Assembly (NCBI GenBank): GCA_001772335.1
Contig: METM01000021.1
Location: forward strand, 57,130-121,129
DNA: 64,000 nucleotides
Direction of reading: 5' to 3'
Source of the DNA: a candidate division WOR-1 bacterium RIFCSPHIGHO2_01_FULL_53_15
Lineage (GTDB): Bacteria; Margulisbacteria; WOR-1; O2-12-FULL-45-9; XYB2-FULL-48-7
Both the position numbers and the translations under genes were made by a program. Below are positions 34,421-54,367 of this stretch, in pieces. The stretch's first letter is position 1, and every line of letters starts with the position of its first letter. Below the pieces are notes generated by a model. It was not told the DNA's origin, did no database searches, and saw nothing but the letters and a program-made list of their open reading frames with translations.

Positions 34421-35182
34421 ATGGCGATCGGCAGAACAAATATCATCGCGGCTAATTTAAAACTTACTTCTGGTTTGGGCAGGAAGGATGTGCGCGGCTA
34501 TCTTGGCCAATTGGGGACGCATCCGGCCCTTCAGTCTTCGAGTACGAGGGTTCGCGTTTATGCCTCTTTCGGAGTTTTACAAGGGCTGAAAAATGACGCG
34601 GCGGGGAGGGTCGCTCTGGGGGTTAAGAATTTTCATCTTGATAATACCCACCCATCGGTCGAAGATCTGCGGCAAATGAAGATCTGGCACGCACTGATCG
34701 GCCGGTCCGGTACGGAGCACGGAGTAACCGATGCGGCTGTGGCCCAAAAGCTGAAGGCCGCACTGGCCATGGACATCTTTGCCACGGTCTGCGTGGGCGC
34801 CAAAACTCATGATGATCTGGCCGAGCAGGTCCGCGAGGGGATAATCCCGGCTTTAAACACCCAAAGCCGCAAGCTTAGCGGGAAAGGGCCCGACCATCGA
34901 TTTGATATCGCTTATCTGCCGGGCCGGCAGCCGTTCCAAATGACCGACATAGAAGCCGCCTTCGCGGTTATCAAAGAAATTCTTTGGGAAGGGGGACACC
35001 AAAGTATAGTTGACCATGGGGATTTTCTATTTGGATTAGGCGGAAGCGTGAAGCCCGAAAATGCCCCGGAACTGCTTCGTCAGCCCTTCATCCACGGCCT
35101 TCTGGTTCGCACAGCTTCCCGAAGTGCGAATAATTTGATCGAAATGATCGATCTGGCGGAGAGGATCGGGAGTAGCGCGTAA
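34421..35182 (+). CDS. triosephosphate-isomerase-fold protein lacking the catalytic His and Glu (TIM-like, probable non-TIM function)
   Basis: ATG 34421 follows AAGGGGG. By-eye alignment to TpiA gives IIAANLKL~GNWKMN (Asn/Lys kept), ALIGRSGTEHG~IIGHSERR (His to Arg), TVCVGAK~LCIGE, IAYLPGRQPF~IAYEPVWAIG (Glu to Leu, loop 6 replaced) and GLGGSVKPENAPELLRQPFIHGLLVRTAS~YGGSVKPENAAEL..DIDGALVGGAS. Confidence 0.6.
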   Translation: MAIGRTNIIAANLKLTSGLGRKDVRGYLGQLGTHPALQSSSTRVRVYASFGVLQGLKNDAAGRVALGVKNFHLDNTHPSVEDLRQMKIWHALIGRSGTEHGVTDAAVAQKLKAALAMDIFATVCVGAKTHDDLAEQVREGIIPALNTQSRKLSGKGPDHRFDIAYLPGRQPFQMTDIEAAFAVIKEILWEGGHQSIVDHGDFLFGLGGSVKPENAPELLRQPFIHGLLVRTASRSANNLIEMIDLAERIGSSA

Positions 35183-35206
35183 GTATTTTTCAAGGAGGAA
35201 AGGAAA

Positions 35207-38200
35207 ATGGTTTACAGAGTAAAGGCCAGAACGGTGGAAGGAAGACGGGTGGCGGGCTTATTGAGTACAGACAAATTCACAACGGCTAGGTTGATGGAGG
35301 CGAGGGCGGCAGAGAGAATCGGGTTCGGCGCTGGGGCTTTAAGTGTGGCGGCTTCGCTCCAGGTGCAACGGCTGGAAACGGCGGCGAAAAGGTCTTTTGA
35401 TGTCCTGCCGGCCTATTTTTTCGGCGACGGCAGATCGGAATTCAGGCCGGATGGCGGTTTTAAGCCGGATAAAGATACTTTAGGCGGCAAAGGCGCAAAT
35501 CTGCACAGCATGACCGAAGCGGGCATCTCGGTACCCCCTGGTTTTACCATTCCGACGACCGAAACCAACAGATACTTTGTTCAGGATAACGGCCAATTAC
35601 CGGATGGCTTAATGGATGTTGTTATGCAAAAAGTGGAAATGGTCGAGGCGGCCACGGGCAATAAGTTCGGCGATGAAGACCGGCCGCAGCTCTTCTCTGT
35701 CCGTTCCGGAGCTAAATTCTCCATGCCGGGGATGATGGACACTATTTTAAATCTTGGCCTGAATAATAAGACTGTCCTGGGCCTGGCCAAAGCGGCAAAT
35801 AATGAACGCTTTGCCTGGGACAGCTACCGGAGATTCATCCAGATGTTCAGCAACGTTGTCCTCGGCGTCAAAAAAGATGTGTTAGAGGAAATATTGAGCG
35901 AGAAGAAGGTCAGCCGTGGCGTGAAGAACGACACTGAATTAACTGTTGATGACTTGAAAGAGCTGGTGGCCGAATATAAGGCGAAATTGAAAGAATTGGG
36001 AGCCGAGGTCCCCCAGGACGAGCGGCGTCAATTGGAACTGGCCATTGAAGCGGTCATGAAATCTTCCAATAATGAGCGGGCCATCGTTTACAAGAGGGAC
36101 TTTAACATTCCCAAGGAGATCGTTTCAGCGGTCAATGTCCAGGCCATGGTCTTCGGCAATATGGGAGAGGACAGCGCGACCGGCGTGGGCTTTACGCGCA
36201 ATCCGGAGACCGGCGCCAATGAATTTTATGGCGAGTTCCTGTCGAACGCGCAGGGCGAAGACGTGGTGGCCGGCGTCCGGACCCCGCTCAAGCTCAAACG
36301 TCTGGCCGAGGTGATGCCCGAGGCCTATGCCCAGCTCAGGGAGGTCACCACGCGGCTCGAAAAATTCTTTCGCAATGTTCAGGATTTTGAGTTCACCATT
36401 GAAAGAGGCAAGCTGTATATGCTGCAGACCCGGGATGGAAAACGGTCCGCCCAGGCGGCCGTAAACATCGCGGTCGATCTGGTTGAGGAGGGGGCGATCA
36501 CAATTGAAGAAGCCCTCATGATGATCGAGCCGGAGCAGATGTCGCACCTGCTTCACCCGGTGTTTGATCCGGAGGAAAAGAAAGTGGCGATCAAGGCGGG
36601 GAGATTGCTGGGCCAGGGGATCAATGCTTCTCCGGGGGCGGCGGTCGGCCGCATAGAATTTACCGCGGAGGCGGTCGTTTTGGCAACCGCCAATGACACA
36701 AAAGACAAAAAAACAAAAGTTATTCTGGTGAGAAAAGAGACGAACCCGGACGATATCTCCGGGATGAAAGCCGCGCAGGGCATTTTGACGGCGACGGGCG
36801 GGGCAACCTCGCACGCCGCCCTGGTTGGCCGGCAGATGGGAAAGCCGGCGGTGGTTGGTTTTAGCGCCGCGGAAGTCGATGAGAAGGCAAGAACGATACG
36901 GATCGGGGATCGGGTCTTCAAAGAAGGGGATATTTTATCAATTGACGGCACGACGGGCGAAGTGTTCGCGGGGGAGATCATGACGCTCCCTTCCGAGATC
37001 AAGCGGGTCGTCGAAGGCCAGCTGAAGGCCGAGGACTCGCCGGTTTATCAACGCTACATGAAAGTCCTGGGCTGGGCGAAAGAGGCGGCTGAGCTGGAAG
37101 TTTGGGCGAACGCGGATACCGCCAAAGATGTCAAAATTGCCGATGCTTTTGAAGCGCAGGGGGTCGGGTTGGCCAGGACAGAGCACATGTTTTTCGGCGA
37201 CGACCGCATTCCTTACATGGTGGCGATGATCCTGTCGGAAACCCCGGCGGAGAAACAGCCGTTCCTTGACAAAATATTGGCAATGCAGAGGTCTGATTTT
37301 ATCTCTCTGTTTGAGGTGATGAAGGGGCGGCCGGTGACCATCCGAACGATCGACCCGCCTCTGCATGAGTTCCTGCCCAAAACCGACGCTGATATCGACA
37401 AACTGCTCTCTTCTATCCATTCGGTTGCCCTGGTGGAACAACTCGAGCGCAAGCTGGGGATTTCAAAAGAGGGGGTTACACGAGATGAATTGGGTGAAGA
37501 GCTCTGGCTGGCGCTCAGGGAAAAAGTGAAGCGGCGTTCCGCCGAATTGCATGAGGCCAACCCCATGATGGGGCATCGCGGCACCCGCCTCGGCATCACC
37601 AATCCGGAAATTACCGCCATGCAGGCGCGCGCGATCTTTGAAGCGGCGTTCGCGGTTGCCCGCAAAGGGATCCCCGTTAAACCAAAGATCATGATCCCGC
37701 TGGTCGGTTTTGCGGCCGAATTGAAAGACCAGGCCACGATAGTGAGGGAAGTCCATGCTGAATTGGAAAAAGAGCACGGCCCGATCGCTTTCCAGCTTGG
37801 CACGATGATCGAGGTGCCCCGGGGCGGTTTAACCGCGGACGAGATCGCCCTCCTGGCGGAATTCTTCTCTTTCGGGACCAATGACCTGCATCAATATACG
37901 CTGGGCTTCAGTCGTGACGACGCCGGCAAGTTTATCGCTCCCTACATTGACAAGGGGATCATTCCCGCGGACCCGACCCAGAAGATCGATCAGCCCGGCA
38001 CCGGCAAGCTGATGTGGCTGGCGGTCCAGCTGGGGAGAGAAACCCGGCCGGATCTGGAGATCGGAATTTGCGGCGAACATGGCGGGGAGCCGACTTCAGT
38101 GGAATTCTGCCACGCGCTTGGCCTGAACTATGTCAGCGCATCTCCTTACCGCATCCCGGTGGCGCGAATGGCCGCGGCGCAAGCCTGGATAAAAGAGAGG

Positions 38201-38257
38201 AGAATAGAAGACGAATTGAGAAAGTCGGCGAAGGTTCTGCAGGAAGCAAGCAAATAG
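35207..38257 (+). CDS. ppdK: pyruvate, phosphate dikinase (with ~65-aa N-terminal extension)
   Basis: 1016 aa with all three domains. ATP-grasp: LGGKGANLHSMTEAGISVPPGFTI and FSVRSGAKFSMPGMMDTILNLGLN. Swivel: GGATSHAALVGRQMGKPAVVG, with the His codon at 36812. PEP/pyruvate barrel: GLARTEHMFF, FSFGTNDL and GICGEHGGEP. Confidence 0.9.
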   Translation: MVYRVKARTVEGRRVAGLLSTDKFTTARLMEARAAERIGFGAGALSVAASLQVQRLETAAKRSFDVLPAYFFGDGRSEFRPDGGFKPDKDTLGGKGANLHSMTEAGISVPPGFTIPTTETNRYFVQDNGQLPDGLMDVVMQKVEMVEAATGNKFGDEDRPQLFSVRSGAKFSMPGMMDTILNLGLNNKTVLGLAKAANNERFAWDSYRRFIQMFSNVVLGVKKDVLEEILSEKKVSRGVKNDTELTVDDLKELVAEYKAKLKELGAEVPQDERRQLELAIEAVMKSSNNERAIVYKRDFNIPKEIVSAVNVQAMVFGNMGEDSATGVGFTRNPETGANEFYGEFLSNAQGEDVVAGVRTPLKLKRLAEVMPEAYAQLREVTTRLEKFFRNVQDFEFTIERGKLYMLQTRDGKRSAQAAVNIAVDLVEEGAITIEEALMMIEPEQMSHLLHPVFDPEEKKVAIKAGRLLGQGINASPGAAVGRIEFTAEAVVLATANDTKDKKTKVILVRKETNPDDISGMKAAQGILTATGGATSHAALVGRQMGKPAVVGFSAAEVDEKARTIRIGDRVFKEGDILSIDGTTGEVFAGEIMTLPSEIKRVVEGQLKAEDSPVYQRYMKVLGWAKEAAELEVWANADTAKDVKIADAFEAQGVGLARTEHMFFGDDRIPYMVAMILSETPAEKQPFLDKILAMQRSDFISLFEVMKGRPVTIRTIDPPLHEFLPKTDADIDKLLSSIHSVALVEQLERKLGISKEGVTRDELGEELWLALREKVKRRSAELHEANPMMGHRGTRLGITNPEITAMQARAIFEAAFAVARKGIPVKPKIMIPLVGFAAELKDQATIVREVHAELEKEHGPIAFQLGTMIEVPRGGLTADEIALLAEFFSFGTNDLHQYTLGFSRDDAGKFIAPYIDKGIIPADPTQKIDQPGTGKLMWLAVQLGRETRPDLEIGICGEHGGEPTSVEFCHALGLNYVSASPYRIPVARMAAAQAWIKERRIEDELRKSAKVLQEASK

Positions 38258-38286
38258 GCCAGGGCGGTCAGGTCTCTGTGAAGAAA

Positions 38287-40965
38287 TCAGCGTTCAGGGA
38301 AGGGGACTCCGTTTCTTTCGCAAAGTTCTATTAGGCGTTGTACATCCCAGTTGGCGTAAAAATCGTAGAACTTGGTGTAAGGCTGGGCCAGCAGACCAAG
38401 AACTTCAGCGACATACCGATCGCTCTTCGGGGGAATGGCCTTTTTCACATCGGCCAGACTGATTCCGGTCAATTTTAATGTCATGAATTCGCGGACATTG
38501 CCGGTGTGCAGGAAAAGTGAATTGTCTTTCAGCCCCGTCTTTTCGATCTCCTTGCGCGCCCGATTAACCTCTCGCTCGCCGACCATCTCCAGCAAGCCGC
38601 GATATTTTTGGCACAAGACCCATTCATTAATGAGCTGAGCGATTTCCTTCGGGGAAAATACCCGCCAGAAAGCGACCGGCATTTCACCCGCCAGAAAGCG
38701 GCCGAGCATGAACGAGCCGGCGCTGTAGCCGGAGCGTTTTTCTTTTTCACAGCGGGCAAGGGCGATCTTATAAAATTTGAGCTTTTTATCCAAAGTTAAA
38801 TAATCAAAGATCACGAACTGGCTGTGGTGGTCCCCCAGGCCGGCGGCCAGGACGCCGTCAACATATGCCTCGGGATTGGCTTCGAACCAGGCGTTGGCCA
38901 ACGCGGCTTTTTTCTCCTCTTTTTTTTCGTTTCTCATCTCGACCAGGATCAGCCGGATCAGCGAGCCGAGATCAAGAATATTGGAGGCCTCTGACGCGCC
39001 GCCGGCCAGTTTTTGATATTTTCTGTAGGCGGCGGCGAGCGACTTAAAGAGCGATTCTTCGGCCGCTGTCAGATCAATTTTTTCACCCTCGAGATAGCGC
39101 ATGAAGCGGGCGGGGGTGAATTTGGCTTGCCCGAGCAGCAACACGGCGTGTTTGCTGGAGAGGGTGACCCAGTCACCCTCGTTGATCATTTGGCCGTCGG
39201 CTGACTTTAGCTTCTTGTTTCTGGCGTCCAGTGAAACGCCGCTCTCTTCAAGATTGAGGAGCGCTGGTATTCCGTGACCCCGCGAGGTTTGAACGACGTG
39301 GATCGCCGCCGGCGTCAGGCTGACGAGGCCGTCGACCCGGCTAAGAACAGGGGTGTCGGTCGGCGCAAATGTTTCTTTAGCCAGAATGACCTTTTCGCCA
39401 TTTTCTTTGGCGGTCACGGCGGCCGAGGCGGAGAAATAGACGCGTCCGCTGACGGCGCTCCTGGGCAGGACCGAAGCCCCTCGCGCGAAGAACGGCAGTT
39501 TGGCCAGCGATCCCGGATCGATCGCTTCCGACTCGACCTGCCTGATGTGATATGGTTTGATCAGTTCTCTGATCCGCGCCTCGGCGATCGTTCCCTGCCG
39601 GAACAACTCCATGACCGAGAGCAGGGTCCCGATACCGGTCAGTTCGGCCGGGTTGAGCTGGAGGAGGGCAAAGAGGTCGCTTTCGGCGGCGAACTCGACC
39701 GTGACCGGCGCCCGCAGGTATTTCTCAAGCGCGATGAGCTGCGGAGCGAAATGATAGACGGCGGGGAATTTTTCCCTGATCTCGGCCCGGCCAAGAAAAT
39801 CGGTCGTCTCGGGAGTGAGCACGCCTCCCGTCATGATCTCCTCGCCAAAGACGGAGCGGGCGCTCTCAAGCGACATGCCGGTCCCGGTCCGGGCGTGGCG
39901 GCTGAGCAGAACCCCGGCGTAGGAGCGCCGGCTGAGCGCGCTGCAGACCATCTTCTGGAAGATCATCGTCGGATACTGCTCCTCGCCGCGCATAAAGGTG
40001 CGCAGGAGGTCCAGGTTGTCGCCATAATCTTCGTAGGCCCTGGCCAGGAAGAAGACGACCTGATAATAAGGATCGGTGATGAGCCGCGGGTCCTTCCGCC
40101 TGATCATCGTCATCAGCTCATCAACCAGGGTCTGGTTGTCTTTGTGGCCGAGATCGGGCCTGACTTTGTGGCGGATCTTCTCGTATCCGGCCGGATCAAG
40201 CGCCCGCAGGATATTGCGGAGATTGTTCAGGATGATCCGGACGGCCGCTTCGTTGCCGTACCGCCGGGTCAGCGCGTCATAAGCGCTTTCGACGACGCCG
40301 GCGTTAAGATAAGTCGGCATGACGCCGGGGATGTAGGCCGGCATGGCGCAGCGCATCGCCGCCAGGAGAGGGTCTTCGGAGTGGCCGAATTGCTGGCCGG
40401 TCAGCTGTTCCAGGTTATACACCGCGTCGTGGATGTGCTTTTCGCGCTCTTTCAGGGTGAGCCGATATGCCCTGGCCGTCAGGAAACTAAAATCAGGAAC
40501 AGGATAGCCCTGCTTGATGAGGGCAAGGAGGACGGCGCCCTTGTTGCTGATCAGCTCTTCAGGATAGGCGGCGTCGGTCGTCGACGGGATGACGAATTCG
40601 TTCTCAGTGAAACGTACGCCGGAGAAATGAGGCGAGATCGCCGCCAGGGCGGTCTCTGCCTTGCTCCGGAGCTCTTTGTGCGCGCCAGTGTCGCCCTCTT
40701 TGGCTTTCAGTATCAGATCGAGATGGTCAAGCGCTCCCTGCGCTTGGTCGAATTCGGCGGAATCAAAATAGCGCAAAAAAGGGATGTCGGTGTCGCGGAC
40801 GCTGACGGCGGCCGGTCGGCCGGCATTATTAATGTAATCGACCTCGGCCGGCAGGTGGCCCGGCAGGGCGGCCGGTATCCGCCCGGCTGATCTCGTCGCT
40901 AATCTGTCATATAATGTACGGCGATTGACATAGCCGCCGCGCACCTGCAGGATCTGCCTGATCAT
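38287..40965 (-). CDS. PPDK-derived protein: ATP-grasp + phosphohistidine-swivel-like domains, with the PEP/pyruvate barrel replaced by an unrelated C-terminal region
   Basis: 892 aa. NKGAVLLALIKQGYPVPDF~GGKGANL..G.PVPPGF. PLLAAMRCAMPAYIPGVMPTYLNAGV~FSVRSGA..MPGMMDT.LNLGL. FGEEIMTGGVLTPET~GEDVVAGVRTP. SLTPAAIHVVQTSRGHGIPALL~GGATSHAALVGRQMGKPAVV, with the His codon at 39300-39298. None of the RTEHMF, GTNDL or CGE motifs is present. Confidence 0.65.
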   Translation of the reverse strand: MIRQILQVRGGYVNRRTLYDRLATRSAGRIPAALPGHLPAEVDYINNAGRPAAVSVRDTDIPFLRYFDSAEFDQAQGALDHLDLILKAKEGDTGAHKELRSKAETALAAISPHFSGVRFTENEFVIPSTTDAAYPEELISNKGAVLLALIKQGYPVPDFSFLTARAYRLTLKEREKHIHDAVYNLEQLTGQQFGHSEDPLLAAMRCAMPAYIPGVMPTYLNAGVVESAYDALTRRYGNEAAVRIILNNLRNILRALDPAGYEKIRHKVRPDLGHKDNQTLVDELMTMIRRKDPRLITDPYYQVVFFLARAYEDYGDNLDLLRTFMRGEEQYPTMIFQKMVCSALSRRSYAGVLLSRHARTGTGMSLESARSVFGEEIMTGGVLTPETTDFLGRAEIREKFPAVYHFAPQLIALEKYLRAPVTVEFAAESDLFALLQLNPAELTGIGTLLSVMELFRQGTIAEARIRELIKPYHIRQVESEAIDPGSLAKLPFFARGASVLPRSAVSGRVYFSASAAVTAKENGEKVILAKETFAPTDTPVLSRVDGLVSLTPAAIHVVQTSRGHGIPALLNLEESGVSLDARNKKLKSADGQMINEGDWVTLSSKHAVLLLGQAKFTPARFMRYLEGEKIDLTAAEESLFKSLAAAYRKYQKLAGGASEASNILDLGSLIRLILVEMRNEKKEEKKAALANAWFEANPEAYVDGVLAAGLGDHHSQFVIFDYLTLDKKLKFYKIALARCEKEKRSGYSAGSFMLGRFLAGEMPVAFWRVFSPKEIAQLINEWVLCQKYRGLLEMVGEREVNRARKEIEKTGLKDNSLFLHTGNVREFMTLKLTGISLADVKKAIPPKSDRYVAEVLGLLAQPYTKFYDFYANWDVQRLIELCERNGVPFPER

Positions 40966-40974
40966 AGCACTTTC

Positions 40975-41078: not shown

Positions 41079-43589
41079 ATGATAAAGATCATTGAGCAGT
41101 CCCGGCCATATTTTTCGCGGAGCGCCATGTTGCGCGGCCTCAGCGAGCGGCTGGCGGGGAGAAAGACACCGGCAGCGAGCTTCGCGTTCTCGGTGCGCTT
41201 TGAGGGCGGCCGGGCTGGCGCTGCTGAGGTTAACCTGCGGGCTTACGACGCGCTCTATTTCAGCAACCCATATTCTCCCGAGGCGGCCGAACACCTCGAC
41301 CTTATCCTGCAGGCGCGGCGGGGCAATAACCGGGCTCAAGCGGCCCTGCGCAAAATGGACCAAGAGGCGCTTGACCGGCTGGGCCAGGCGAAGCCGGAGA
41401 GATCCCGGCCGAATAGGTTTGACGAATTTCTGCTTTCTTCCGGCGCTCCTCACGAGAGCAGCCGTCAGGAGGCGGGGAACAAGGGTTATAACCTCCTGGC
41501 TCTCAGCGCGCAGGGCTTTCCGGTCCCGTCTTTTTGCATTATCAAGGCCGGCTACCGGAAGGCGTTTATTGGGATCAACTGGTCAAAAAGAAACGCCGTC
41601 AGGCAATCAGCCCTGACGAAGCTGGAAGCCCTGACCGGCAAAAAATATGATAATGACGCCAGGCCGCTGCTGTTTGCCATTCGCTCCTGCTTGCCGGAAA
41701 GCTTGCCCGGGATCTTGCCGACCTATCTGGCGGTCGGCGCGACGCAAAGATCGCTCCCCGGCCTGGTCCGGCTTTACGGCGAGCGGACTGCCTATGAGCT
41801 GCGCGCCAATCATTTAATGAGTTTGCTGCTGGCGGCCGAGCCCATCCGCTATCAGCCGTTGCTTGACGGGCTGGGACAGGAAAGGAGCGGCATTCGGGCG
41901 CTGGTTTTTCGGCTCGAAAGGCTGGCCGAAGCGGACGAGCGGAGCCGTTTTTTTACCCCGGAGAGATGCGTAAATTTCTTGATCGACAGGATCGAACTGT
42001 TCTGCGGCGATAATCAGGAGATGCTGCGCTCACTGATGGACGGGGCGCAAACCGAACCGGCGATCATCCTGCAAGAGATGGTCGTGGGGAAAATAGCCGT
42101 CAATTCTTTTGCCGGTGTTTTTAACACGCGGGAGCCGGGCGGCGGGGAAAGGCGCCAGCTGCAGGTCCGCCCCGACGCTTTTGGCGAGGAGATCATGACC
42201 GGCGGCGCCGAGGTTGAAGAGATAACTTTTGCCGAGAGAGCCGTACTGCGGAAAAGGCACAGGGAGATCTACGAGATCATTGACTGTCTGATCGCTCTGG
42301 AGGCGGCCGAGGGCGCGCCGCTGACTTTTGAACTGACTTCCGAGCGCGGCATGATTGCCGTACTCCAGATGGATAAGACCTCATTGTCCGGTGTCGCCGC
42401 GCTCAGGTCGGCGGTCCGTCTCCTGCGGGAGGGCAAGATCAAGCGGAGCGGCCTGCTGGAGATCGTCAAGCCGTTCCATTTGCGCCAGCTCTTCTCCGAC
42501 ACGGTCGAAGGCAAGGACTCGCTGCGGCCTTTTGCCGGCGGCCTGAGCATTTTACCGCGCGGCGAGGTCTGCGCCCGGGCGTATTTTTCCGCGGCCAGCG
42601 CCCTGGCGGCGCGTGAGCGGGGAGAGAAAGCGATCATGATCCGGGAGATTTTTCAGCCAGCGGATGTCGAGGCGATGGTCGAGATGAGCGGGCTGGTGAG
42701 CGTCTCCAGGTCGCCGGTGCACGTGGCGCAGATCGCCAGGAAATACGGTATCATTGCCCTGGTCGGGCTCTCTGACAGCGGAGCGGTCCCGGTGATCAGG
42801 GAAAATGAACTTGTTTTGCCGGATGGCCGCCGGATCGGCGAAGGCAACTTTGTTGTCATCTCGAGCGAAGAGCAGAGGTTGTACCTTGGCGAAGCGAAAA
42901 CCGTCCCTTCAGGCATGACGGAGAGCAAAGAGCTCTGGCCGGAGCTTGTTTACTTCAAGGATGAGCTTACGCGTTTTGCGGCGGCGGAGGTCGCTGACGG
43001 CCAGGCGCTGGACAATCTGGTTGATCTGCTCTTGATATTCGGCGAAACGGAAGCGGCGCGGCAGCTGGTTAACCGCTGGTTCAGGGAAAGGACGGAAAGT
43101 TTCCTGTCGTATTTTGCGGCCACTCGGATCGGCCGCCACCGCAGCCGCCTCCAGCTTTTCAGCCTGCTTGATTTTCCCTTCAACCAGGCGGAGCTGATCA
43201 GGCGGTTGTCCGGGCGGCCAAAGAATGCGGACGCCGAAGGCATGTTCATCATCGGCCGGGCGATGGTCTGGGTCGAAGAAAAGCTTGGTGAGTCCGCCCT
43301 CAACCGGCTCTGCAGCGGTTTTTCCGGCGAGTTGACCCGGGCTATTCGGGCTGAGATGAAGCGGGCCAGGGAATATCTCGGCGTCGCGCGCGCCGAAAAG
43401 CCGGCGACCGATGGCCGGGCTTTAGGTAATTCGATGGAAAGAATTCTTCGGGCGGTTTTGGAAAGAAAAGAATCGGGCCTTTCAGAGGAAGAGGCGGACC
43501 AGGTGATCTGGCTCGCCATGCAGGACATCGATCCATTGCACAAGCCGCACAAGACGATCGCGCGCGCTCTCGGCGAATTAAAAAAATAA
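41079..43589 (+). CDS. PPDK-derived protein, paralogue of 38287-40965 (ATP-grasp + swivel-like, no PEP/pyruvate barrel)
   Basis: ATG 41079 follows GGGAG. Contains NKGYNLLALSAQGFPVPSF, PLLFAIRSCLPESLPGILPTYLAVGA, FGEEIMTGGAEVEE and VSVSRSPVHVAQIARKYGIIALVG (His codon at 42720). Its N-terminal extension shares HLDLIL.A..G with its paralogue. The C-terminal ~290 aa is unrecognised. Confidence 0.65.
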   Translation: MIKIIEQSRPYFSRSAMLRGLSERLAGRKTPAASFAFSVRFEGGRAGAAEVNLRAYDALYFSNPYSPEAAEHLDLILQARRGNNRAQAALRKMDQEALDRLGQAKPERSRPNRFDEFLLSSGAPHESSRQEAGNKGYNLLALSAQGFPVPSFCIIKAGYRKAFIGINWSKRNAVRQSALTKLEALTGKKYDNDARPLLFAIRSCLPESLPGILPTYLAVGATQRSLPGLVRLYGERTAYELRANHLMSLLLAAEPIRYQPLLDGLGQERSGIRALVFRLERLAEADERSRFFTPERCVNFLIDRIELFCGDNQEMLRSLMDGAQTEPAIILQEMVVGKIAVNSFAGVFNTREPGGGERRQLQVRPDAFGEEIMTGGAEVEEITFAERAVLRKRHREIYEIIDCLIALEAAEGAPLTFELTSERGMIAVLQMDKTSLSGVAALRSAVRLLREGKIKRSGLLEIVKPFHLRQLFSDTVEGKDSLRPFAGGLSILPRGEVCARAYFSAASALAARERGEKAIMIREIFQPADVEAMVEMSGLVSVSRSPVHVAQIARKYGIIALVGLSDSGAVPVIRENELVLPDGRRIGEGNFVVISSEEQRLYLGEAKTVPSGMTESKELWPELVYFKDELTRFAAAEVADGQALDNLVDLLLIFGETEAARQLVNRWFRERTESFLSYFAATRIGRHRSRLQLFSLLDFPFNQAELIRRLSGRPKNADAEGMFIIGRAMVWVEEKLGESALNRLCSGFSGELTRAIRAEMKRAREYLGVARAEKPATDGRALGNSMERILRAVLERKESGLSEEEADQVIWLAMQDIDPLHKPHKTIARALGELKK

Positions 43590-47221: not shown

Positions 47222-47428
47222 ATGCTAAAGGAATTCCGCTGCAAATTCTGCCACCGCCTGCTGGCCAAAGTCGGCGAGGGATCGAAAGTCGAGATCAAGT
47301 GCCCCAAATGCAAAACGCTGAGCCTCTATAATGAAGAAACGGTCGTCGTCTACGAAGTGCCCGAGAACAACGTCACCAAAAAGATCATCGAGCGCGGCTG
47401 GGTCAAGTACGACGTGATCCAGAACTGA
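47222..47428 (+). CDS. Com-family zinc-ribbon protein
   Basis: ATG 47222 follows GGGAGGGG. FRCKFCHRLLAKVGEGSKVEIKCPKCKTLSLY matches the Mu Com pattern RCxxCxKLL.....EI.CP.CK. Confidence 0.55.
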   Translation: MLKEFRCKFCHRLLAKVGEGSKVEIKCPKCKTLSLYNEETVVVYEVPENNVTKKIIERGWVKYDVIQN

Positions 47429-47446: not shown

Positions 47447-48748
47447 ATGAGCATTAAGCTAAATCCGACCCATTTAAGGCATTTTCGACCGATAAACACC
47501 ATATCAATCGGTCGGGGAGCGACCGTTGCGTTAAAGGTTGATTTTAACGTGACGATAAAAGACGGGAAGATTCAGAACCCGGAGAAAATTAGAGCCGCTT
47601 TTAGGACTATTGACCATTTACTGGCGTCGGGCGCAAATATTGTAATTTATACTCATCTGGGCCAGCCCAAGAAGGGCTGTGAGGCAAAGACATCCCTGAA
47701 CCTCGTGGCTGATTTCTTGGCCGAAAAATACGGCAGGGACACGGTTATTAACGGGGAATCGTTAATTACGCCGGATGAAAACGGTTTTCTGCCGACGGAA
47801 CAATATATTAATAAGGCCGTGCGAGAAGCCGCGGTCGGCCTGGGCGGCAAGGCCAGGATATTGTTGATGCCGAACGTGAGATGGGCGGCTTATGAACAGG
47901 CCAAACCGACCGATCCCGGTCATCAAGCACTGGCTCAAGCCATGCTGGGACTCTCCGATGGCTTTGCAGTTTTTGACGCCGCGGCGGTCTGGAATAAGGA
48001 GCATGCTTCGATCACAACCATGCTCCGGCTGGCCGGCCTGAACAATATCGCCTGGGGTTTCCATGCTCATGAAATGGCTGAACTGCTGGTGAGAAGGTTT
48101 ACCGGCGACATACCGCGGCCGTATGTTCTGCACATTTCCGGCACAAAGGCGGATAAAATGGGTTATATCCTTGATTTTCTGGGTAACCCGCAAATTGACT
48201 CCATTTTAGTTTCGGGCAATATCGCCAACGGTTTGATGGAGGTTTTGGGCAGGTCTGTCGGCGCCGCGGCGGGAACCTACGGCGCGCCCGAGTTGGAAAA
48301 AGCGAGAAGAATCGTAAACCATCCGCGCTTCGGCGGTGCGGTTTCCCTGCCGGTTGATTTTATTATTGCCAGACCGGACGGGTCTGACCGCCGGTATTTG
48401 GCTCAAGGAGAAATTATCCCCGAAGGCTTCAGGCAGTTTGATATCGGCAGAGAGACCGCTTCTCTCTACGCGAAAATACTGGCTACGGCCGGCCTGGCTG
48501 TTAACTCCGGTGTCCCGGGCGCTTTTGACTTTGGCAACCCGCCGTTTGAAGAGGGGACAAAGGTTGTCCTGCCCGGCTTTGCAAGAGCCAAGCAGAGCAT
48601 TAATCTCGGCGGTGACGGCGGGATCGCCGCGGAAAAATACCTGACGCCGGAAGAGCTGGCGCGGACCGAAGTTTTAGTCGCGGGCGGTTCTTTCCTGCAC
48701 GCCATGGCGCACCAGACCTTCCCCGTGGCCGAAGTATTCTTAAATTAA
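47447..48748 (+). CDS. phosphoglycerate-kinase-fold protein, strongly divergent (PGK-like)
   Basis: 433 aa. ALKVDFNVTIKDGKIQNPEKIRAAFRTIDHLLASGANIVIYTHLGQPKKG~RVDFNVP..G.I..D.RI.A.LPTI..L...GA.V...SHLGRP. Also PNVRW~ENVRF, DAAAVWNKEHAS~DAFGTAHRAHAS, ISGTKADK~GGSKVSDK, NSGVPGAFDF~WNGPMGVFE, LGGDGG~GGGDT and VAGGSFLHAM~STGGGA.LE. Confidence 0.7.
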   Translation: MSIKLNPTHLRHFRPINTISIGRGATVALKVDFNVTIKDGKIQNPEKIRAAFRTIDHLLASGANIVIYTHLGQPKKGCEAKTSLNLVADFLAEKYGRDTVINGESLITPDENGFLPTEQYINKAVREAAVGLGGKARILLMPNVRWAAYEQAKPTDPGHQALAQAMLGLSDGFAVFDAAAVWNKEHASITTMLRLAGLNNIAWGFHAHEMAELLVRRFTGDIPRPYVLHISGTKADKMGYILDFLGNPQIDSILVSGNIANGLMEVLGRSVGAAAGTYGAPELEKARRIVNHPRFGGAVSLPVDFIIARPDGSDRRYLAQGEIIPEGFRQFDIGRETASLYAKILATAGLAVNSGVPGAFDFGNPPFEEGTKVVLPGFARAKQSINLGGDGGIAAEKYLTPEELARTEVLVAGGSFLHAMAHQTFPVAEVFLN

Positions 48749-48828: not shown

Positions 48829-49896
48829 ATGAGCGGAGTTGGAAAGGCAACGGTTAATTTGATGAGGTTGGGCAGGAACGGGCTGCACGCGCCGGGGCTA
48901 AGATCTGCGGTGATCAAGAATAATTTTAAGGCCGCGCTGGATAGATCGAGGGGCAACGCGACGACTTATCCGATCGATCATATCGAGGAGCACGGGCCGG
49001 CCCACTATTTTGTCCGGGGCATGCTGCGCAGTTTTGATCCGGGCGCGGTAGTCGAAGTCGCCCGCGAGGGGGGCGTTATGGCCATGGCGGTGTTGCCGGG
49101 GCTGGGCCAGCAGATCGGCCAGCTGACCAAAGGCGACATGCCGCTGATCTGGAAGCTTAACCGCGGTTCGGGCGCGAAGGTCAATGGCGATGCTACCACC
49201 GTCAGACTTTACAGTGACGTTGATAAAGCGATGAGCGTTGCCGTTGATAACGGCGCCAGGTTCTGGGGCGCGACTTTTTACAACGGCTCGGCCAATGTTC
49301 CCGACATGATCCAGCAGCTGGCTGAAATGGACGAAGCCGGCGCGCGCCACGGCCTGGGCGGCGTGGTTTGGAATTATCCGAGGGGGAGCGAGATTCCGAA
49401 AGGGCATGACGCGGATATCATGTATCAATTAGAGGGTTTTGAGCGGATAATCAACGCTTGTCCGGGCAGCCTGGTTCTGGTCAAGGAGAAGGTTTCCACC
49501 CTGCCCGGGACGGTCGCGGATTGGGAGGCGGGAGAGATAGAAAAGGTTGGCCGGGGCGAAGGCGCCTGGGGCAAACCCGGGACAAAAGGGGTTAAGGACG
49601 AGGTTGTCCGAACCTTTCTGGCCATGAATCGCGCCGTCCATATCGCCTTTATGGTCGAGCTTCAGCACAATCAGGGGATTGCCAGCTTGATGTCGGGCGG
49701 AGCGCCGCAGGAACGCGAAAAATTCGAAGCCGATCTAAATGACGGTATCGGCCCTGATCGGCATGTCGCGTTCATCGCCGGCCGTTCGACCACCAATGAA
49801 ATAAAGTACCAGGTTGACGAATATGATATTTCCGGCGCGGTCAGACACATGCACATGTTGAGGGACGCGGCGCCGAAAGTTGTCATAGAAGGATAA
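48829..49896 (+). CDS. class I aldolase-fold protein (FbaB/DhnA-like), divergent
   Basis: 355 aa with an AAGGAGG SD. TYPIDHIEEHGP~ILPVDQGVEHSA. GATFYNGSANVPDMIQQLAEMDEAGARHGLGGVVWNYPRG~[47 protein letters not shown]~ADIVKQK (Schiff-base Lys kept). SLMSGGAP and FIAGRS~ILGRK. The E. coli FbaB sequence was recalled from memory. Confidence 0.55.
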   Translation: MSGVGKATVNLMRLGRNGLHAPGLRSAVIKNNFKAALDRSRGNATTYPIDHIEEHGPAHYFVRGMLRSFDPGAVVEVAREGGVMAMAVLPGLGQQIGQLTKGDMPLIWKLNRGSGAKVNGDATTVRLYSDVDKAMSVAVDNGARFWGATFYNGSANVPDMIQQLAEMDEAGARHGLGGVVWNYPRGSEIPKGHDADIMYQLEGFERIINACPGSLVLVKEKVSTLPGTVADWEAGEIEKVGRGEGAWGKPGTKGVKDEVVRTFLAMNRAVHIAFMVELQHNQGIASLMSGGAPQEREKFEADLNDGIGPDRHVAFIAGRSTTNEIKYQVDEYDISGAVRHMHMLRDAAPKVVIEG

Positions 49897-49929: not shown

Positions 49930-51420
49930 ATGGCGGGCATATTAGGAGCAAGGAGATTAAATATCGGTCCCGAGATCCGGGCTCGGGCCAGCGCGCTCAC
50001 GGCGCATAACAGGCAGGGGACAGTTCCCCTCCCGGCTTATATCGGACGACCCGGCATGGTCTTGATCTCCGATTCACACGGCGCAGTTGACACTTATCTT
50101 AAGCTTTACGAAGCGCTGCCTTCCACAGTAAGATTCGGCATTGATTTGGGCGACAAAGTTGACCGCGGACCAAGCCCCATTGAAATGAATTATGTCCTGC
50201 AAACTTTACGGGTGAGGCGCGTCCTCGGCAACCACGATGCCATGTGGGTCGCGGCCGGGCTGGGCGTGCCGGCGCAATCCATTGAATTGGTCCGTTGGTT
50301 AATGCGCTATAACGAAGTCGATTTTTTGACATCCGCGCTCGGGGTTGACTTGAAGCCATTGACGCAATTTGCCGGAAGCAGGTTTTCCGAAGGCGCGCAT
50401 CGTATCGATGTGAAATCGAAGCGGTTCAAGAGCGAAGAAGCTGCTGCGACATATTTAAAGATCATTGCTGAAGCAGGGGTTAGGTTCCCAGAACATCGCT
50501 CAACCGAACTTAGTCCTTCTGATCTAAGGATCAGGGAAGCCCTGTTCTTAAAAGGTTCAGCAGAGGCATTAGCGCCTTCTGAAAGGGACATTTTTAACAG
50601 GCTTACAGGCGATGCGCCGTTGAGCGGGGATGACCAATCCTATTTTTATCGTTTGATGGGAGGACTAAAAGTTCTTCAGCCCGAAGAACAAGCAGTTGTG
50701 AATCACTTTGCAAATGAATTCAGAAACAATTATGCGTTTTACCAATTTGTAAAATGGATGGCCGGGGAGGGAGATCTTTATCTTAATTTCCGGATCAGAC
50801 AGGGCTATTCTAGCGACATTCTGGCCTTGCACGCGACGGTTCCGCTCACCGCCGACGGTGAATTGGCTGAATTTGACGGCCGATACGGCAGGGAAGCGCT
50901 GCTGCATTTGAAAGACCGAATACAGCTGGGGCTCGAGGCCTGGAGGCAAATGTTGGAACACGATGATCAGGGACTGCTGGAAATGCATCAAAACGATATA
51001 AGTGTTTTAGGTTTGCTGCCCTGGGACAGGCGATCGCCTATTTACGCGAGGCAAATGCAGACTGCGGCCCGGGCCGTGCTCAATGAAAAGACCGGAACCT
51101 GGGAAGAGCCCAAAGAACCATTCTTTTCTGTTTTTGAGAAAGGGGAAGATCTTCAGGCGCTGGCAAACGCCCGCAGGAATATTGCCGCGTCATTTGGCTT
51201 TAGGAATCCCAATAATTTTGTCATTGTGCGCGGGCATGAGCCAAGCAAGGACGGCATGTTCCAGGTGTTCGCCGGTGGCACTGTCATTAACATAGATGGA
51301 GGCATGGCTGAAAAATACGGCGGCAAAGGCGGCGCACTTGTTATGGGGTCGGCCGGCGCGGCCTGGCTTGCCTACCCAAGCATGAATTACACAAGAGTTC
51401 CCTTGCCGGAATCGGTTTAA
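49930..51420 (+). CDS. metallophosphoesterase of the class 3 fructose-1,6-bisphosphatase type (FBPase-III-like), divergent and shorter
   Basis: ISDSHG, GDKVDRGPSP, LGNHDAMWVAAGLG...LMRYNEVDFL...GVDLKPLTQFA, VRGHEP and INIDGGMAEKYGGKGG follow the order of motifs in Bacillus-type Fbp. The start is ATG 49930, or TTG 49924 as in the ORF track. Confidence 0.55.
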   Translation: MAGILGARRLNIGPEIRARASALTAHNRQGTVPLPAYIGRPGMVLISDSHGAVDTYLKLYEALPSTVRFGIDLGDKVDRGPSPIEMNYVLQTLRVRRVLGNHDAMWVAAGLGVPAQSIELVRWLMRYNEVDFLTSALGVDLKPLTQFAGSRFSEGAHRIDVKSKRFKSEEAAATYLKIIAEAGVRFPEHRSTELSPSDLRIREALFLKGSAEALAPSERDIFNRLTGDAPLSGDDQSYFYRLMGGLKVLQPEEQAVVNHFANEFRNNYAFYQFVKWMAGEGDLYLNFRIRQGYSSDILALHATVPLTADGELAEFDGRYGREALLHLKDRIQLGLEAWRQMLEHDDQGLLEMHQNDISVLGLLPWDRRSPIYARQMQTAARAVLNEKTGTWEEPKEPFFSVFEKGEDLQALANARRNIAASFGFRNPNNFVIVRGHEPSKDGMFQVFAGGTVINIDGGMAEKYGGKGGALVMGSAGAAWLAYPSMNYTRVPLPESV

Positions 51421-51497
51421 CGCCCCGCCCCACCTCTGCCGCCTCGACGGCTTTGCCGTAGGCCATGCGGCCCGGCGGCCTCCCGATAGTTTCATGC

Positions 51498-51526
51498 TTG
51501 ACAAGTAGAGAATTATCGGATATTAT
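51498..51526 (+). promoter_or_regulatory. sigma-70-like promoter TTGACA-N17-TATTAT for the ATPase gene
   Basis: ttgaca agtagagaattatcgga tattat, 30 nt before GTG 51557. Confidence 0.45.
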
Positions 51527-51556
51527 TCTATTCGTCAATTCTAAAGAGGTAAAGCC

Positions 51557-52729
51557 GTGTTATTCCCGAGAGAATCGCTGGAAAAAATTAAAAGGGTCTT
51601 GCCGAGGGAAGAGTTTATCGTCTTAACGGGGGCAAGGCAAACAGGGAAAACTTCCCTGTTGATGCTGTTGAAGGATCATCTGGAAAAAACCGGCCAGACC
51701 GGCCATTATTTGAACCTGGAAAACGCGGAAACGCTTAAAGCCTTGAACGAGCACCCCCTTAATCTTTTTGAGCTGATCCCGGCCGGCAAAACAAAAATGA
51801 ACGTTTTTATCGATGAAATCCAGTATCTTGACAGCCCGACTAATTTTTTGAAACTGCTTTACGATGAAAACAGGGAGCGGGTGAAGATCATCGCCTCCGG
51901 CTCCTCGGCTTTTTACATTGATGAAAAATTTAAAGACAGCCTGGCCGGCCGCAAATTTCTGTTCGAGCTTTACCCATTGAATTTTCATGAATTCCTGGTT
52001 TTTAAGCAAGCCAGCGGATTACTTGGGCAAAAGCTTTCTGTTTATAGCAAAAAAAGAAAAATAAAGCTCTGGACGGAATATATAATTTACGGCGGATACC
52101 CAAAAATTGTTTTAACCGAAGAAGAAGAGCTTAAAAAAATCTTATTGGAGGAGATCGGATCCGCGTATGTAAAAAAAGATATTGTCGAGGCGGGCATAAA
52201 AAATACCGATAAGTATTTCGCTTTATTAAAAATACTGGCGGAACAAACCGGCTGTCTGGTCAATTCCCAGGAGCTGGCGAATACTCTTAATCTGGCGCAT
52301 AAGACCATTGAAGACTATTTGCATGTCATGAAAAAATCTTATCAAATAGCTTTCGTCCGGCCGTTTTATAAAAATCTGCGCAAGGAATTGACCAAGATGC
52401 CCAAGGCGTATTTTTATGATCTGGGATTGAGGAATTTCTTTATGAATGATTATTCAAAACCGGAGCGGCGCCCGGATAAGGGCGCCTATCTGGAAAATGT
52501 TGTTTTTCGCGAATTATTGGGGCGAACAACGGATCGCGATAATATCAAATATTGGCGGACGCAGGAAAAAAATGAGGTGGATTTTGTGGCCGGGAGTCAG
52601 GCCTTTGAGGTGAAATTTGATCTGAAGGGCCTCAAGCGGAAAAAATACAGCCAATTTCAAAAAGAATACCCGGCGATCGAGCTGACATTTTTGGCTTACG
52701 ATACATTGATGGAGTATTTTTACCCTTAA
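51557..52729 (+). CDS. AAA-family ATPase with DUF4143-type C-terminal domain
   Basis: 390 aa. Walker A GARQTGKTSLL and Walker B-like VFIDEIQY. The C-terminal region (KYWRTQEKNEVDFV) is typical of the ATP-binding protein / DUF4143 family. Confidence 0.7.
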   Translation: MLFPRESLEKIKRVLPREEFIVLTGARQTGKTSLLMLLKDHLEKTGQTGHYLNLENAETLKALNEHPLNLFELIPAGKTKMNVFIDEIQYLDSPTNFLKLLYDENRERVKIIASGSSAFYIDEKFKDSLAGRKFLFELYPLNFHEFLVFKQASGLLGQKLSVYSKKRKIKLWTEYIIYGGYPKIVLTEEEELKKILLEEIGSAYVKKDIVEAGIKNTDKYFALLKILAEQTGCLVNSQELANTLNLAHKTIEDYLHVMKKSYQIAFVRPFYKNLRKELTKMPKAYFYDLGLRNFFMNDYSKPERRPDKGAYLENVVFRELLGRTTDRDNIKYWRTQEKNEVDFVAGSQAFEVKFDLKGLKRKKYSQFQKEYPAIELTFLAYDTLMEYFYP

Positions 52730-54367
52730 ATGAACAATCGATTGGCGCCCGTCTATCTCTGCATCCTCGATGGCTTTGCGGTCGGAGAGAACGGCCCCAA
52801 AAACGCGATCTTCGATGCCATCAATTCCGGCAAAGCTCCTTTTATCGCCGATCTTTTTTCAAAACAGCCTTACGCGAAGCTTGAGTGTTCGGGTCTGGCT
52901 GTCGGTTTACCCGAAGGGACAATGGGCAACTCCGAGGTCAATCACCTCAATATGGGGGCGGGCCGGATCGTTTACCAATCGATCGAGCGGATCAACGCGG
53001 CGATCGAAGACGGCAGTTTTTTTACTAACGAAGCCTTAACGGCCGCCGTCAAAAACGCCAGGCAAAATGCTTCCTCCCTTCACTTAATGGGAATATTACA
53101 GGGGCACGGCGGCACCGTCCACGGCAGTATCAAACACCTTTTCGCCCTGTTAGAACTCGTCAAAAGAGCCGAACTCAACACGGTCTATATCCACCTCTTT
53201 ACCGACGGGCGCGATACGAATCCGAAAGCGGCCGGAGAGATCTATTTGAAGATGCTGGAAGATGAGATAGGAAGGCAGGGATTGCAGGGAGTAGCAAGGA
53301 TCAGCACGGTTATGGGCAGGGAAATAGCGATGGACCGCGATACGGCGTGGGATAAGACCCTGATCGGTATGAGGTGTGTGGTAAGGGGCGTGGGGGAATA
53401 TAAGGCCGCGACTGCCCGCGAGGCGATCGAAAATTCCTATGCGCGAGGCCAGACCGACGAATTTATCCGGCCAACCATTATCGGCGGCTACACCGGCATG
53501 GGGCCGGTCGATTCTGTCATTTACTTCAACTTCCGCCAGGACAGGACGATCCAGCTGACGACGGCGTTCTGCGAGACCGATAAACAATACTTTAACTATA
53601 AAAAGGGGACAAAGCCAATTGATGAAGATGTTTATAAACAGATACAAGGTATGAGGGAAGGGGTAAGGGGTATGACGTTTGTCGCCATGACAGAATATTA
53701 TCCGGGTCTGCACGGCCTGACCGCTTTCCCGGAAAAGGAGATCCCCGACACCGTCGGCGAGATCGTTTCGCTCTCCGGGCTCAAGCAGCTGCGCTTGGCG
53801 GGGCCGGAAAAGTTCGCCCACGTGACTGGCTGGTTCTCCGGCCGCCGGACGGAGCCGTTTGAAGGCGAGGACCGCCATTTGGCGCAGGATATTTCGCTCA
53901 AGGAAAAGACCGAAGGCGGCAAACACTACGATTGGGCGCCGGAGATGACCGCTTTTCTTGAAACCGATTTTTCGCTTGGCGCCATCGCCGGCGGCAAATA
54001 TTCGCTTATCGTCCACAACTTCCAGAACTGCGACATGGTCGGCCACACCGGCAATCTTAAAGCGGCGACCGAAGCAATCGTTGATATTTCGTCCTGCCTG
54101 GAAAAGCTCGTGCCGGCCTGGACTTCGAGCGGCGGCCTCTTTATCATCACCGCCGATCACGGCAACGCCGACGAAATGACGCTTGAGAGCGGCGGCAAGG
54201 AAGTCGTCAGCACACAGCACTCCCTCAATCCGGTGCCGTTCTGGGTTCTCGGTAAAGAGATTAAGTTATCAGCTGAGGGTAAAATTCCTGATGTTGGGGT
54301 TACTGTTTTGAAATTGATGGGATTGCCGGTTCCTAAGGCGATGACGGCCAAGTCGCTGATTGCTTAA
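52730..54367 (+). CDS. gpmI: 2,3-bisphosphoglycerate-independent phosphoglycerate mutase
   Basis: 545 aa. Contains ILDGFAVGE, GLPEGTMGNSEVNHLNMGAGRIVYQ, HLFTDGRDT, NFQNCDMVGHTGN and ITADHGNADEM. The ATG immediately follows the upstream TAA. Confidence 0.9.
   Translation: MNNRLAPVYLCILDGFAVGENGPKNAIFDAINSGKAPFIADLFSKQPYAKLECSGLAVGLPEGTMGNSEVNHLNMGAGRIVYQSIERINAAIEDGSFFTNEALTAAVKNARQNASSLHLMGILQGHGGTVHGSIKHLFALLELVKRAELNTVYIHLFTDGRDTNPKAAGEIYLKMLEDEIGRQGLQGVARISTVMGREIAMDRDTAWDKTLIGMRCVVRGVGEYKAATAREAIENSYARGQTDEFIRPTIIGGYTGMGPVDSVIYFNFRQDRTIQLTTAFCETDKQYFNYKKGTKPIDEDVYKQIQGMREGVRGMTFVAMTEYYPGLHGLTAFPEKEIPDTVGEIVSLSGLKQLRLAGPEKFAHVTGWFSGRRTEPFEGEDRHLAQDISLKEKTEGGKHYDWAPEMTAFLETDFSLGAIAGGKYSLIVHNFQNCDMVGHTGNLKAATEAIVDISSCLEKLVPAWTSSGGLFIITADHGNADEMTLESGGKEVVSTQHSLNPVPFWVLGKEIKLSAEGKIPDVGVTVLKLMGLPVPKAMTAKSLIA

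Follow-up and report, generated by a model that had tools for sequence, protein, structure and literature searches.

Gene content of the locus

We examined a 64,000-nucleotide stretch of DNA (hereafter, the window) from Saganbacteria HO1A, a member of candidate division WOR-1, in which genes related to glycolysis and gluconeogenesis are crowded together. The source genome, from the Rifle aquifer, is 1.56 Mb in size and 98% complete, with 54% GC (PMC6349859). A reading of the sequence alone (hereafter, the original prediction) had described a compact cluster of divergent relatives of the enzymes that lead from pyruvate to fructose 6-phosphate (F6P). All the genes it named are present where it had placed them, and the family assignments were right as judged by Pfam and NCBIfam and, for one 892-amino acid protein, by Foldseek. 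The same gene layout occurs in several groundwater assemblies, on contigs bearing an identical phosphoglycerate kinase (PGK)-like protein, and gene calls on these contigs have the same starts. Families were scored with Pfam gathering scores and NCBIfam equivalog cutoffs; P-numbers denote homologous proteins and L-numbers compared loci. The pathway-related genes are the following.

32224 to about 33501, minus strand: canonical enolase gene eno (Pfam Enolase_C, 423 bits; Enolase_N, 197 bits)
34421 to 35182, plus strand: triose-phosphate isomerase (TIM)-fold protein, 253 amino acids (PF00121, 56 bits)
35207 to 38257, plus strand: canonical pyruvate phosphate dikinase (PPDK) gene ppdK (TIGR01828, 1173 bits against a cutoff of 843; three Pfam domains)
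38287 to 40944, minus strand: PPDK-derived protein, 885-892 amino acids (TIGR01828, 125 bits; BLASTP against ppdK, E 1e-25; Foldseek)
41079 to 43589, plus strand: second PPDK-derived protein, 836-848 amino acids, a paralog of the 892-amino acid protein (TIGR01828, 138 bits)
43662 to 47180, plus strand: M50-like membrane domain fused to a domain-swapped enolase, 1172-1177 amino acids (Enolase_C, 173 bits; Enolase_N, 37 bits)
47222 to 47428, plus strand: Com-type zinc-ribbon protein, 68 amino acids (PF10122, 41 bits)
47447 to 48748, plus strand: highly diverged PGK-family kinase (PF00162, 167 bits, profile positions 7-376 of 379)
48829 to 49896, plus strand: diverged class I (DhnA/FbaB-type) aldolase-fold protein (DeoC, 39 bits; NF006704, 66 bits against a cutoff of 277)
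49930 to 51420, plus strand: short metallophosphoesterase of the class III fructose-1,6-bisphosphatase (FBPase) type, 496-498 amino acids (FBPase_2, PF06874, 111 bits against a threshold of 27; Metallophos)
52730 to 54367, plus strand: canonical cofactor-independent phosphoglycerate mutase gene gpmI (TIGR01307, 466 bits against a cutoff of 331)

The eno, ppdK and gpmI genes are conventional. The longest eno open reading frame (ORF) starts with TTG at 33627 and overlaps a tRNA-Gly(GCC) gene on the same strand (33570-33642), the only RNA element found in the window; the true start therefore lies near 33501. In ppdK, an N-terminal extension of ~85 residues (35207-35460) precedes the TIGR01828 match; it is faintly similar (E 0.017) to residues 601-660 of the 892-amino acid PPDK-like protein.

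Among the clustered genes scored, only ppdK and gpmI reach an NCBIfam equivalog cutoff. Every diverged gene exceeds the Pfam gathering score of its own family, but the NCBIfam scores fall short: 218 of 300 bits for the enolase-like protein (TIGR01060), 41 of 293 for the TIM-like protein, and 66 of 277 and 125 and 138 of 843 for the aldolase-like and the two PPDK-like proteins. The sole NCBIfam model matched by the PGK-like protein is that of a bifunctional PGK/TIM (137 bits against 883), and the FBPase-like protein has no relevant NCBIfam match. Thus, compared with class III FBPase (PF06874), the fructose 1,6-bisphosphate (FBP) aldolase of T. tenax (1ojx), PGK and TIM, the window homologs pass Pfam and none reaches the equivalog level. 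The enolase-like and PPDK-derived proteins are extra copies, as predicted, beside the canonical ppdK and an ordinary eno that lies 0.9 kb upstream; they are the only members shown to be additional.

The PPDK-like proteins and the enolase fusion

The most novel content of the locus is a pair of genes found across phyla, encoding a PPDK-like protein and a fusion of an M50-like domain to enolase. The two PPDK-like proteins of the window share 32% identity over 820 amino acids. BLASTP aligns the 892-amino acid protein with the N-terminal two-thirds of ppdK, and its layout comprises an N-terminal domain, an ATP-grasp domain, a swiveling histidine domain (His556) and a C-terminal domain. In an AlphaFold2 model of this protein (pLDDT 87), residues 634-885 are all-helical with high confidence; the protein therefore lacks the phosphoenolpyruvate (PEP) barrel, and the PEP/pyruvate barrel family PF02896 gave no Pfam match. 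Both resemble PPDK (TIGR01828; 1kbl) in their ATP-grasp and swiveling phosphohistidine domains, with the Lys, Arg, Glu, Gln and His residues conserved, but differ from it in an all-helical domain of ~260 residues that replaces the TIM barrel, in an extra N-terminal domain of ~130 residues and in their low TIGR01828 scores. K142, R205, E424, Q436, H556, H713 and K831 are invariant in the family alignment, and the 848-amino acid protein has the same columns. The preserved residues thus include those of the ATP-grasp and the phospho-carrier His556, and His713 and Lys831 fall in the helical C-terminal domain.

Foldseek searches with the model of the 892-amino acid protein returned PPDK (1kbl) first (E 6e-32) and rifampin phosphotransferase (5hv1) second. 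The latter is described as combining ATP-grasp, swiveling histidine and helical substrate-binding domains, with no PEP barrel (PMC4844700). The PPDK-like proteins follow the same domain logic, but the structural match is distant (E 1e-7, TM 0.18) and the domain order is different. In rifampin phosphotransferase, the histidine domain is C-terminal. The model NF041857 gave no match to the 892-amino acid protein at E <= 0.01, and the 848-amino acid protein scored 15.8 bits against a cutoff of 999. On the model of rifampin phosphotransferase, the PPDK-like proteins would act as ATP-dependent histidine-swivel dikinases that phosphorylate an acceptor bound by a new substrate domain. Relatives of ~890 amino acids with 41-48% identity occur in at least 227 GTDB species from many phyla. 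The N- and C-terminal domains have no informative Pfam or PDB sequence match, and the literature searched contained nothing relevant on this family.

The fusion protein downstream of the second PPDK-derived gene consists of the following parts, all on the plus strand.

43944 to 44516 (residues 100-290): M50/site-2-protease-like domain with four hydrophobic helices (hydropathy profile and motifs)
44679 to 45596 (residues 345-650): enolase TIM barrel (BLASTP, hhalign and invariant active-site residues)
45747 to 46361 (residues 701-905): enolase N-terminal domain (Pfam Enolase_N at 790-905; collinear with the canonical N-domain)
46569 to 47177 (residues 975-1177): C-terminal extension present only in Saganbacterial/Margulisbacterial versions

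The M50-like helices come first, then the barrel, then the N-domain; the two enolase domains are thus in swapped order relative to canonical enolase, in which the N-domain precedes the barrel. We aligned 31 fusion sequences from Saganbacteria, Margulisbacteria and Planctomycetota. The hydrophobic helices carry HEMGH (165-169), AGP (237-239) and LLD (283-285) motifs, in which H165, E166, H169, P239 and D285 are invariant. Of the 31 family members, 17 give weak matches to Peptidase_M50 (PF02163), the best at E 2.6e-5; with 11.5 bits, the fusion of the window is below the threshold of 27.2. The assignment of the membrane domain rests on sequence evidence because the AlphaFold2 model of the fusion is poor (pLDDT 65), with low confidence in the membrane region, and Foldseek searches with it yielded only enolases. 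Like site-2 proteases (Peptidase_M50; RseP, SpoIVFB), the fusion has HExxH, AGP and LD motifs in hydrophobic helices and an appended cytoplasmic domain. SpoIVFB carries CBS domains in this position. Unlike these proteases, the fusion falls below the Pfam gathering score, and the literature searched had no example of an enolase in the appended position.

The enolase part is much better preserved. The barrel is 35% identical to the window's own eno (BLASTP) and aligns with it at an hhalign probability of 99.9. We compared the enolase residues, in yeast numbering, of catalysis (Lys345, Glu211), metal binding (Asp246, Glu295, Asp320), substrate binding (Gln167, Glu168, His373, Arg374, Ser375, Lys396) and the catalytic loop (Ser39). 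The complete set is invariant in the 31 sequences, in which the barrel residues are Q376, E377, E420, D464, E522, D550, K574, H602, R603, S604 and K625. The catalytic-loop serine (GTSAGE) is located in the N-domain, which has an extra stretch of ~45 inserted residues and in which S741 and E746 are invariant. Judged by these residues, the fusion enolase appears to be catalytically complete. It differs from canonical enolase (TIGR01060) in its domain order, in the membrane HExxH domain, in the extra C-terminal domain of the Saganbacterial proteins and in the existence of double-length versions. These are 1666-1888 amino acids long (P0003, P0008 and P0009 were also noted). One such protein, P0006 (L008 10001-15001, JGI Ga0378408_0000011), contains Enolase_C, Enolase_N, Enolase_C and Enolase_N in succession, i.e., two barrel and N-domain units; a canonical eno and a gap gene are on the same contig.

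Homologs of the fusion number more than 1000. A 911-amino acid homolog from Phycisphaerales is 64% identical across fusion residues 92-973, so that the M50-like domain, barrel and N-domain constitute the conserved core; Planctomycete and Acidobacterial homologs stop near residue 907-973. The C-terminal extension has no informative Pfam or PDB sequence match, and the literature searched held nothing relevant on an M50-enolase fusion.

To describe the linkage of the two families, we used the 80 best species loci carrying a PPDK-like gene, of the at least 227 species, with flanks of 10 kb. An enolase fusion lies within 10 kb of the PPDK-like gene in 34 of the 80 loci, and the gap is below 300 bp in 29 of those. 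The linked loci belong to Acidobacteriota, Elusimicrobiota, Deltaproteobacteria, Binatia and Saganbacteria. In 33 of the 34 the two genes are arranged tail to tail, i.e., they do not form an operon, and in many taxa either partner also occurs with no copy of the other in the 10-kb flanks. Clustering of all ORFs from 35 loci recovered these two genes and overlapping shadow ORFs, with no third conserved neighbor; TIM-, PGK-, aldolase- and FBPase-like genes and Com were not found in the non-Saganbacterial pair loci. In a Saganbacterial locus, L100, a relative of the second PPDK-derived protein is just upstream of the enolase-like gene.

The window's fusion is 64% identical to Phycisphaerae proteins and ~45% identical to Acidobacterial ones, and is thus nearer to the former. 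Among the listed matches of the PPDK-like protein there is no Planctomycete name, and the non-Saganbacterial ones are led by Acidobacteria. Since their nearest relatives differ, the two members of the pair may have had separate transfer histories.

Could the two proteins form a single machine? What is missing from the PPDK-like protein is precisely the PEP/pyruvate domain, its partner has an intact PEP/2-phosphoglycerate (2-PG) site, their adjacency recurs in at least five phyla, and no third partner is conserved. The enolase barrel might then supply the missing PEP site, and the pair would interconvert 2-PG/PEP and ATP through the swiveling histidine at the membrane. Convergent transcription and the occurrence of each gene, in many taxa, without the other within 10 kb do not fit such a machine, and the invariant His713 and Lys831 suggest that the helical domain has a substrate site of its own. 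In addition, enolase chemistry takes the C2 proton, with a geometry unlike that for phosphotransfer to the pyruvate enolate. We regard a split machine as quite improbable.

Instead, we prefer a mechanism in which the fusion would be a true enolase, tethered to the membrane, through which intramembrane proteolysis would be coupled to the 2-PG/PEP node. A comparable case is the site-2 protease SpoIVFB, which is coupled to the ATP level by its CBS domains. A broader proposal is that the pair represents an undescribed multi-phylum system linking the 2-PG/PEP node to ATP-dependent phosphotransfer, intramembrane proteolysis or both, and that, in Saganbacteria, a dedicated variant pathway with a separate kinase, aldolase and phosphatase would be built around it; we consider this conceivable but rather unlikely.

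A conserved backbone with fast-evolving members

Saganbacterial loci share the order eno (minus strand) … [PPDK-like, enolase-like], Com, [aldolase], FBPase-like, gpmI … oxidoreductase (minus strand), in which the PPDK-like/enolase-like pair is present or absent depending on the locus. The backbone of eno … Com, (aldolase), FBPase-like and gpmI is syntenic across Saganbacteria. The full 10-gene composition, which the original prediction had treated as one locus, is not kept in related genomes and is restricted to the window's lineage.

Com is as conserved among Saganbacterial loci as eno and gpmI, with 75-84% identity in L009, L010, L098, L100, L101 and L103 and 57-58% in L011 and L013. In most loci examined it immediately precedes the aldolase or the FBPase-like gene, and in the window it precedes the PGK-like gene; it may be a small regulator. 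Identity to the window proteins is 82-84% for eno in other Saganbacterial loci and 79-81% for gpmI (L099, L103), compared with 56-61% for the enolase-like, 46-48% for the 892-amino acid PPDK-like, 44-47% for the FBPase-like and 46-67% for the PGK-like proteins. The diverged genes are therefore fast-evolving within the lineage, too.

The PGK-like protein has only seven relatives, 46-99% identical, in a search of 5.8 billion clusters, after which identity drops to ~30% with canonical PGKs. The family retains K215, K219, N336 and D374. In the 3-phosphoglycerate (3-PG) site, H62 and R122 are retained, R38K and R170K are family-wide, as is R21K, and R65Q occurs only in the window copy. In the aldolase-like protein, Asp51 (DH motif) and Tyr183 (YPRG motif) correspond, in an alignment with the T. 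tenax FBP aldolase, to its catalytic Asp and to Tyr146, and Lys219 (LVKEK, 36 residues past the Tyr) is, by motif and spacing only, a candidate Schiff-base lysine. The FBPase-like protein is shorter than the ~640-residue class III architecture, with the best stretch at profile positions 364-572 of 639, and its DxH, GDxxDR, GNHD and GH motifs are all invariant. At the same place L103 has a more canonical FBPase_2 protein (161 bits), syntenic with the gene of the window.

The TIM-like protein is a different case. It carries H95R, E97G and E165L replacements and a deletion of loop 6 (GRSG for GHSE, YLP for YEP); N10, K12 and the phosphate-binding loop (GGS) are retained. When 1.84 billion representatives were searched exhaustively, four relatives were obtained at E <= 1e-10 (P0362-P0365), one of them an annotated Saganbacterial TIM, and these retain N10, K12, H95, E97, E165 and loop 6. 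By residue content, the TIM-like gene, derived from the Saganbacterial TIM lineage, is the only catalytically decayed member of the locus. The original prediction of departures at normally invariant residues in all members but ppdK and gpmI thus does not hold: the enolase- and FBPase-like proteins are intact at these positions, the aldolase-like protein keeps its Asp and Tyr, and the PGK-like protein has only Arg to Lys or Gln changes. A related idea, that the diverged members form a set of non-catalytic metabolite sensors or scaffolds, applies to the TIM-like protein, with its lost catalytic residues and preserved phosphate-binding loop, and might be extended to the PPDK-like proteins, which have no PEP/pyruvate domain. 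As a description of the whole set, we give it very little credence, as catalytic residues are kept in the enolase-, PGK- and FBPase-like proteins and, as far as it can be aligned, in the aldolase-like protein, and the phospho-carrier histidine and ATP-grasp residues of the PPDK-like proteins are invariant.

We favor the view, with a probability of roughly 0.55, that the locus is a composite gluconeogenic gene neighborhood of Saganbacteria HO1A rather than one new system. The PGK-, aldolase- and FBPase-like proteins are most likely the fast-evolving working enzymes of this lineage because their alignable catalytic motifs are intact, and the PPDK-like/enolase-fusion pair is an independent, widespread and uncharacterized component, whose predicted functions are those outlined above. 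The lower part of the route would run from pyruvate to PEP (PPDK), 2-PG (enolase), 3-PG (GpmI) and 1,3-bisphosphoglycerate (1,3-BPG; PGK-like protein), and the upper part from 1,3-BPG to glyceraldehyde 3-phosphate (by a glyceraldehyde-3-phosphate dehydrogenase, GAPDH, that would be encoded elsewhere), FBP (aldolase-like protein) and F6P (FBPase-like protein). No GAPDH was found among the window ORFs scanned, in agreement with the original prediction. That prediction had also offered a fast-evolving, lineage-specific gluconeogenic cluster as one reading; this fits the pgk, fba and fbp types of gene. The cross-phylum PPDK-like/fusion pair had received no special mention in that prediction.

The published annotation of HO1A is relevant here (PMC6349859, Supplementary Data 2). 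It lists no phosphofructokinase, no class I or II FBP aldolase, and a single FBPase, of class III, flagged 'check_length'; it records as present PGK, TIM, GAPDH, cofactor-independent phosphoglycerate mutase, enolase, PPDK and pyruvate kinase (PMC6349859). Since the table has no gene identifiers, the PGK and TIM that it calls 'reliable' could be either the window genes or others.

Several of these observations weigh against a composite neighborhood of ordinary function. Besides the ambiguous PGK and TIM calls, the Arg to Lys changes at three 3-PG-site positions, together with R65Q, could indicate a different substrate. The Schiff-base lysine (Lys177 in T. tenax) cannot be aligned in the aldolase-like protein, as hidden Markov model alignments end before the Lys strand. 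The aldolase slot, moreover, has very diverged aldolase-fold occupants from either class: in the window the class I-type aldolase (39 bits), next to the PGK-like gene, and in L010 (14894-16426) and L098 (8330-9799) diverged class II aldolase-fold proteins of 510 amino acids that are 79% identical to each other (PF01116, 33 bits in L010). Such a slot would fit a dedicated aldolase with a substrate other than FBP. For the pair, the difficulties are the tail-to-tail arrangement, the occurrence of either member with no copy of the other in the 10-kb flanks and the poor model of the fusion.

Some of the same facts bear on the idea, put forward in the original prediction, of a coherent set of paralogs acting in parallel: the diverged PGK-, aldolase- and FBPase-like proteins, the fusion and the PPDK-like dikinases would process non-standard phosphorylated substrates beside ordinary glycolysis/gluconeogenesis encoded elsewhere. 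Between 41079 and 51420 all the genes run in the same direction, with gaps of 18-80 bp, and a terminator scan of the plus strand, otherwise uninformative, showed no intergenic terminator-like site in this interval. The PGK-like family as a whole has the Arg to Lys changes in its 3-PG site, the slot beside Com and the FBPase-like gene holds very diverged aldolases of either class, and the 'reliable' PGK and TIM of the published table could be other genes (PMC6349859). Against it, the full composition is confined to one lineage, the PGK-like relatives at 46-67% identity are isolated amid housekeeping genes, the relatives of the TIM-like protein include an annotated TIM, and in L103 the syntenic counterpart of the FBPase-like gene encodes a class III FBPase of more canonical type. 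Furthermore, no aldolase of the tabulated classes and no other FBPase were reported in the 1.56-Mb genome (PMC6349859), and the substrate-contacting residues of the fusion are all those for 2-PG/PEP. We therefore consider a parallel pathway unlikely and retain the composite neighborhood as the best explanation.

The original prediction noted no described system of this composition, and none was found in the literature searched. The glycolytic cluster of Bacillus, cggR-gapA-pgk-tpiA-pgm-eno, is similar in that consecutive lower-glycolysis genes are compactly grouped. The window locus differs in the absence of a gap gene, in the addition of ppdK, fba and fbp genes (the gluconeogenic direction), in the extreme divergence of several members and in the unrelated two-gene module embedded in it.

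Surroundings and significance

Two further features of the window adjoin or interrupt the locus.

21366 to 30652, plus strand: two sets of 2-oxoacid:ferredoxin oxidoreductase genes (POR_N, PFOR_II, TPP_enzyme_C, POR and Fer4 domains)
51557 to 52729, plus strand: inserted AAA_14/DUF4143 ATPase (Pfam; PADLOC candidate defense family PDC-S01, 310 bits)

The oxidoreductase sets comprise five co-oriented genes, including one for a 925-amino acid protein (27875-30652) with only a weak TPP-domain match, and they may be the pyruvate source for the adjacent ppdK. The ATPase is outside the pathway. The best sigma-70-like promoter site of the region (51498-51526) is directly upstream of it, and in L099 and L103 there is no such gene between the FBPase-like gene and gpmI. 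A defense island was considered and rejected, with PADLOC matching only this ATPase. A prophage, an idea prompted by the Com ribbon, was rejected in view of the chromosomal housekeeping genes nearby and the synteny of Com across Saganbacteria.

Upstream of the locus are both oxidoreductase sets, an AbiE toxin-antitoxin pair, eno, tRNA-Gly and a 23S-rRNA-IVS protein gene (33706-34065); downstream are genes for a pyridine-nucleotide disulphide oxidoreductase and a radical-SAM protein, gatB and gatA. There are two AbiEii toxin genes in the window, at 31436-32227 (plus strand) and 12052-12921 (minus strand). A weakly matching AbiEi-like antitoxin gene (30811-31443) adjoins the first, just upstream of canonical eno, and the ORF beside the second (11447-12055) has no Pfam match. 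At 5878-11351, an SLH-domain outer-membrane-like protein of 502 amino acids adjoins a 1322-amino acid protein that has Big_13 and NosD-like repeats, and the two probably represent a cell-surface locus.

Overall, the locus brings to light two large cross-phylum families that have no described function, one with more than 1000 enolase fusions and the other with PPDK-like proteins in at least 227 species. The joining of a site-2-protease-like domain to an apparently competent enolase would be a new link between central metabolism and membrane proteolysis. The PPDK-like proteins appear to be a PPDK rebuilt around a new substrate domain, as in rifampin phosphotransferase. There are also consequences for reconstructing metabolism from metagenomes: in the lineage of the window, standard annotation misses the aldolase-like gene and only flags the FBPase-like gene by length, and the TIM-fold gene is predicted to be catalytically dead. 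Calls of pathway completeness in candidate phyla can therefore err in either direction.

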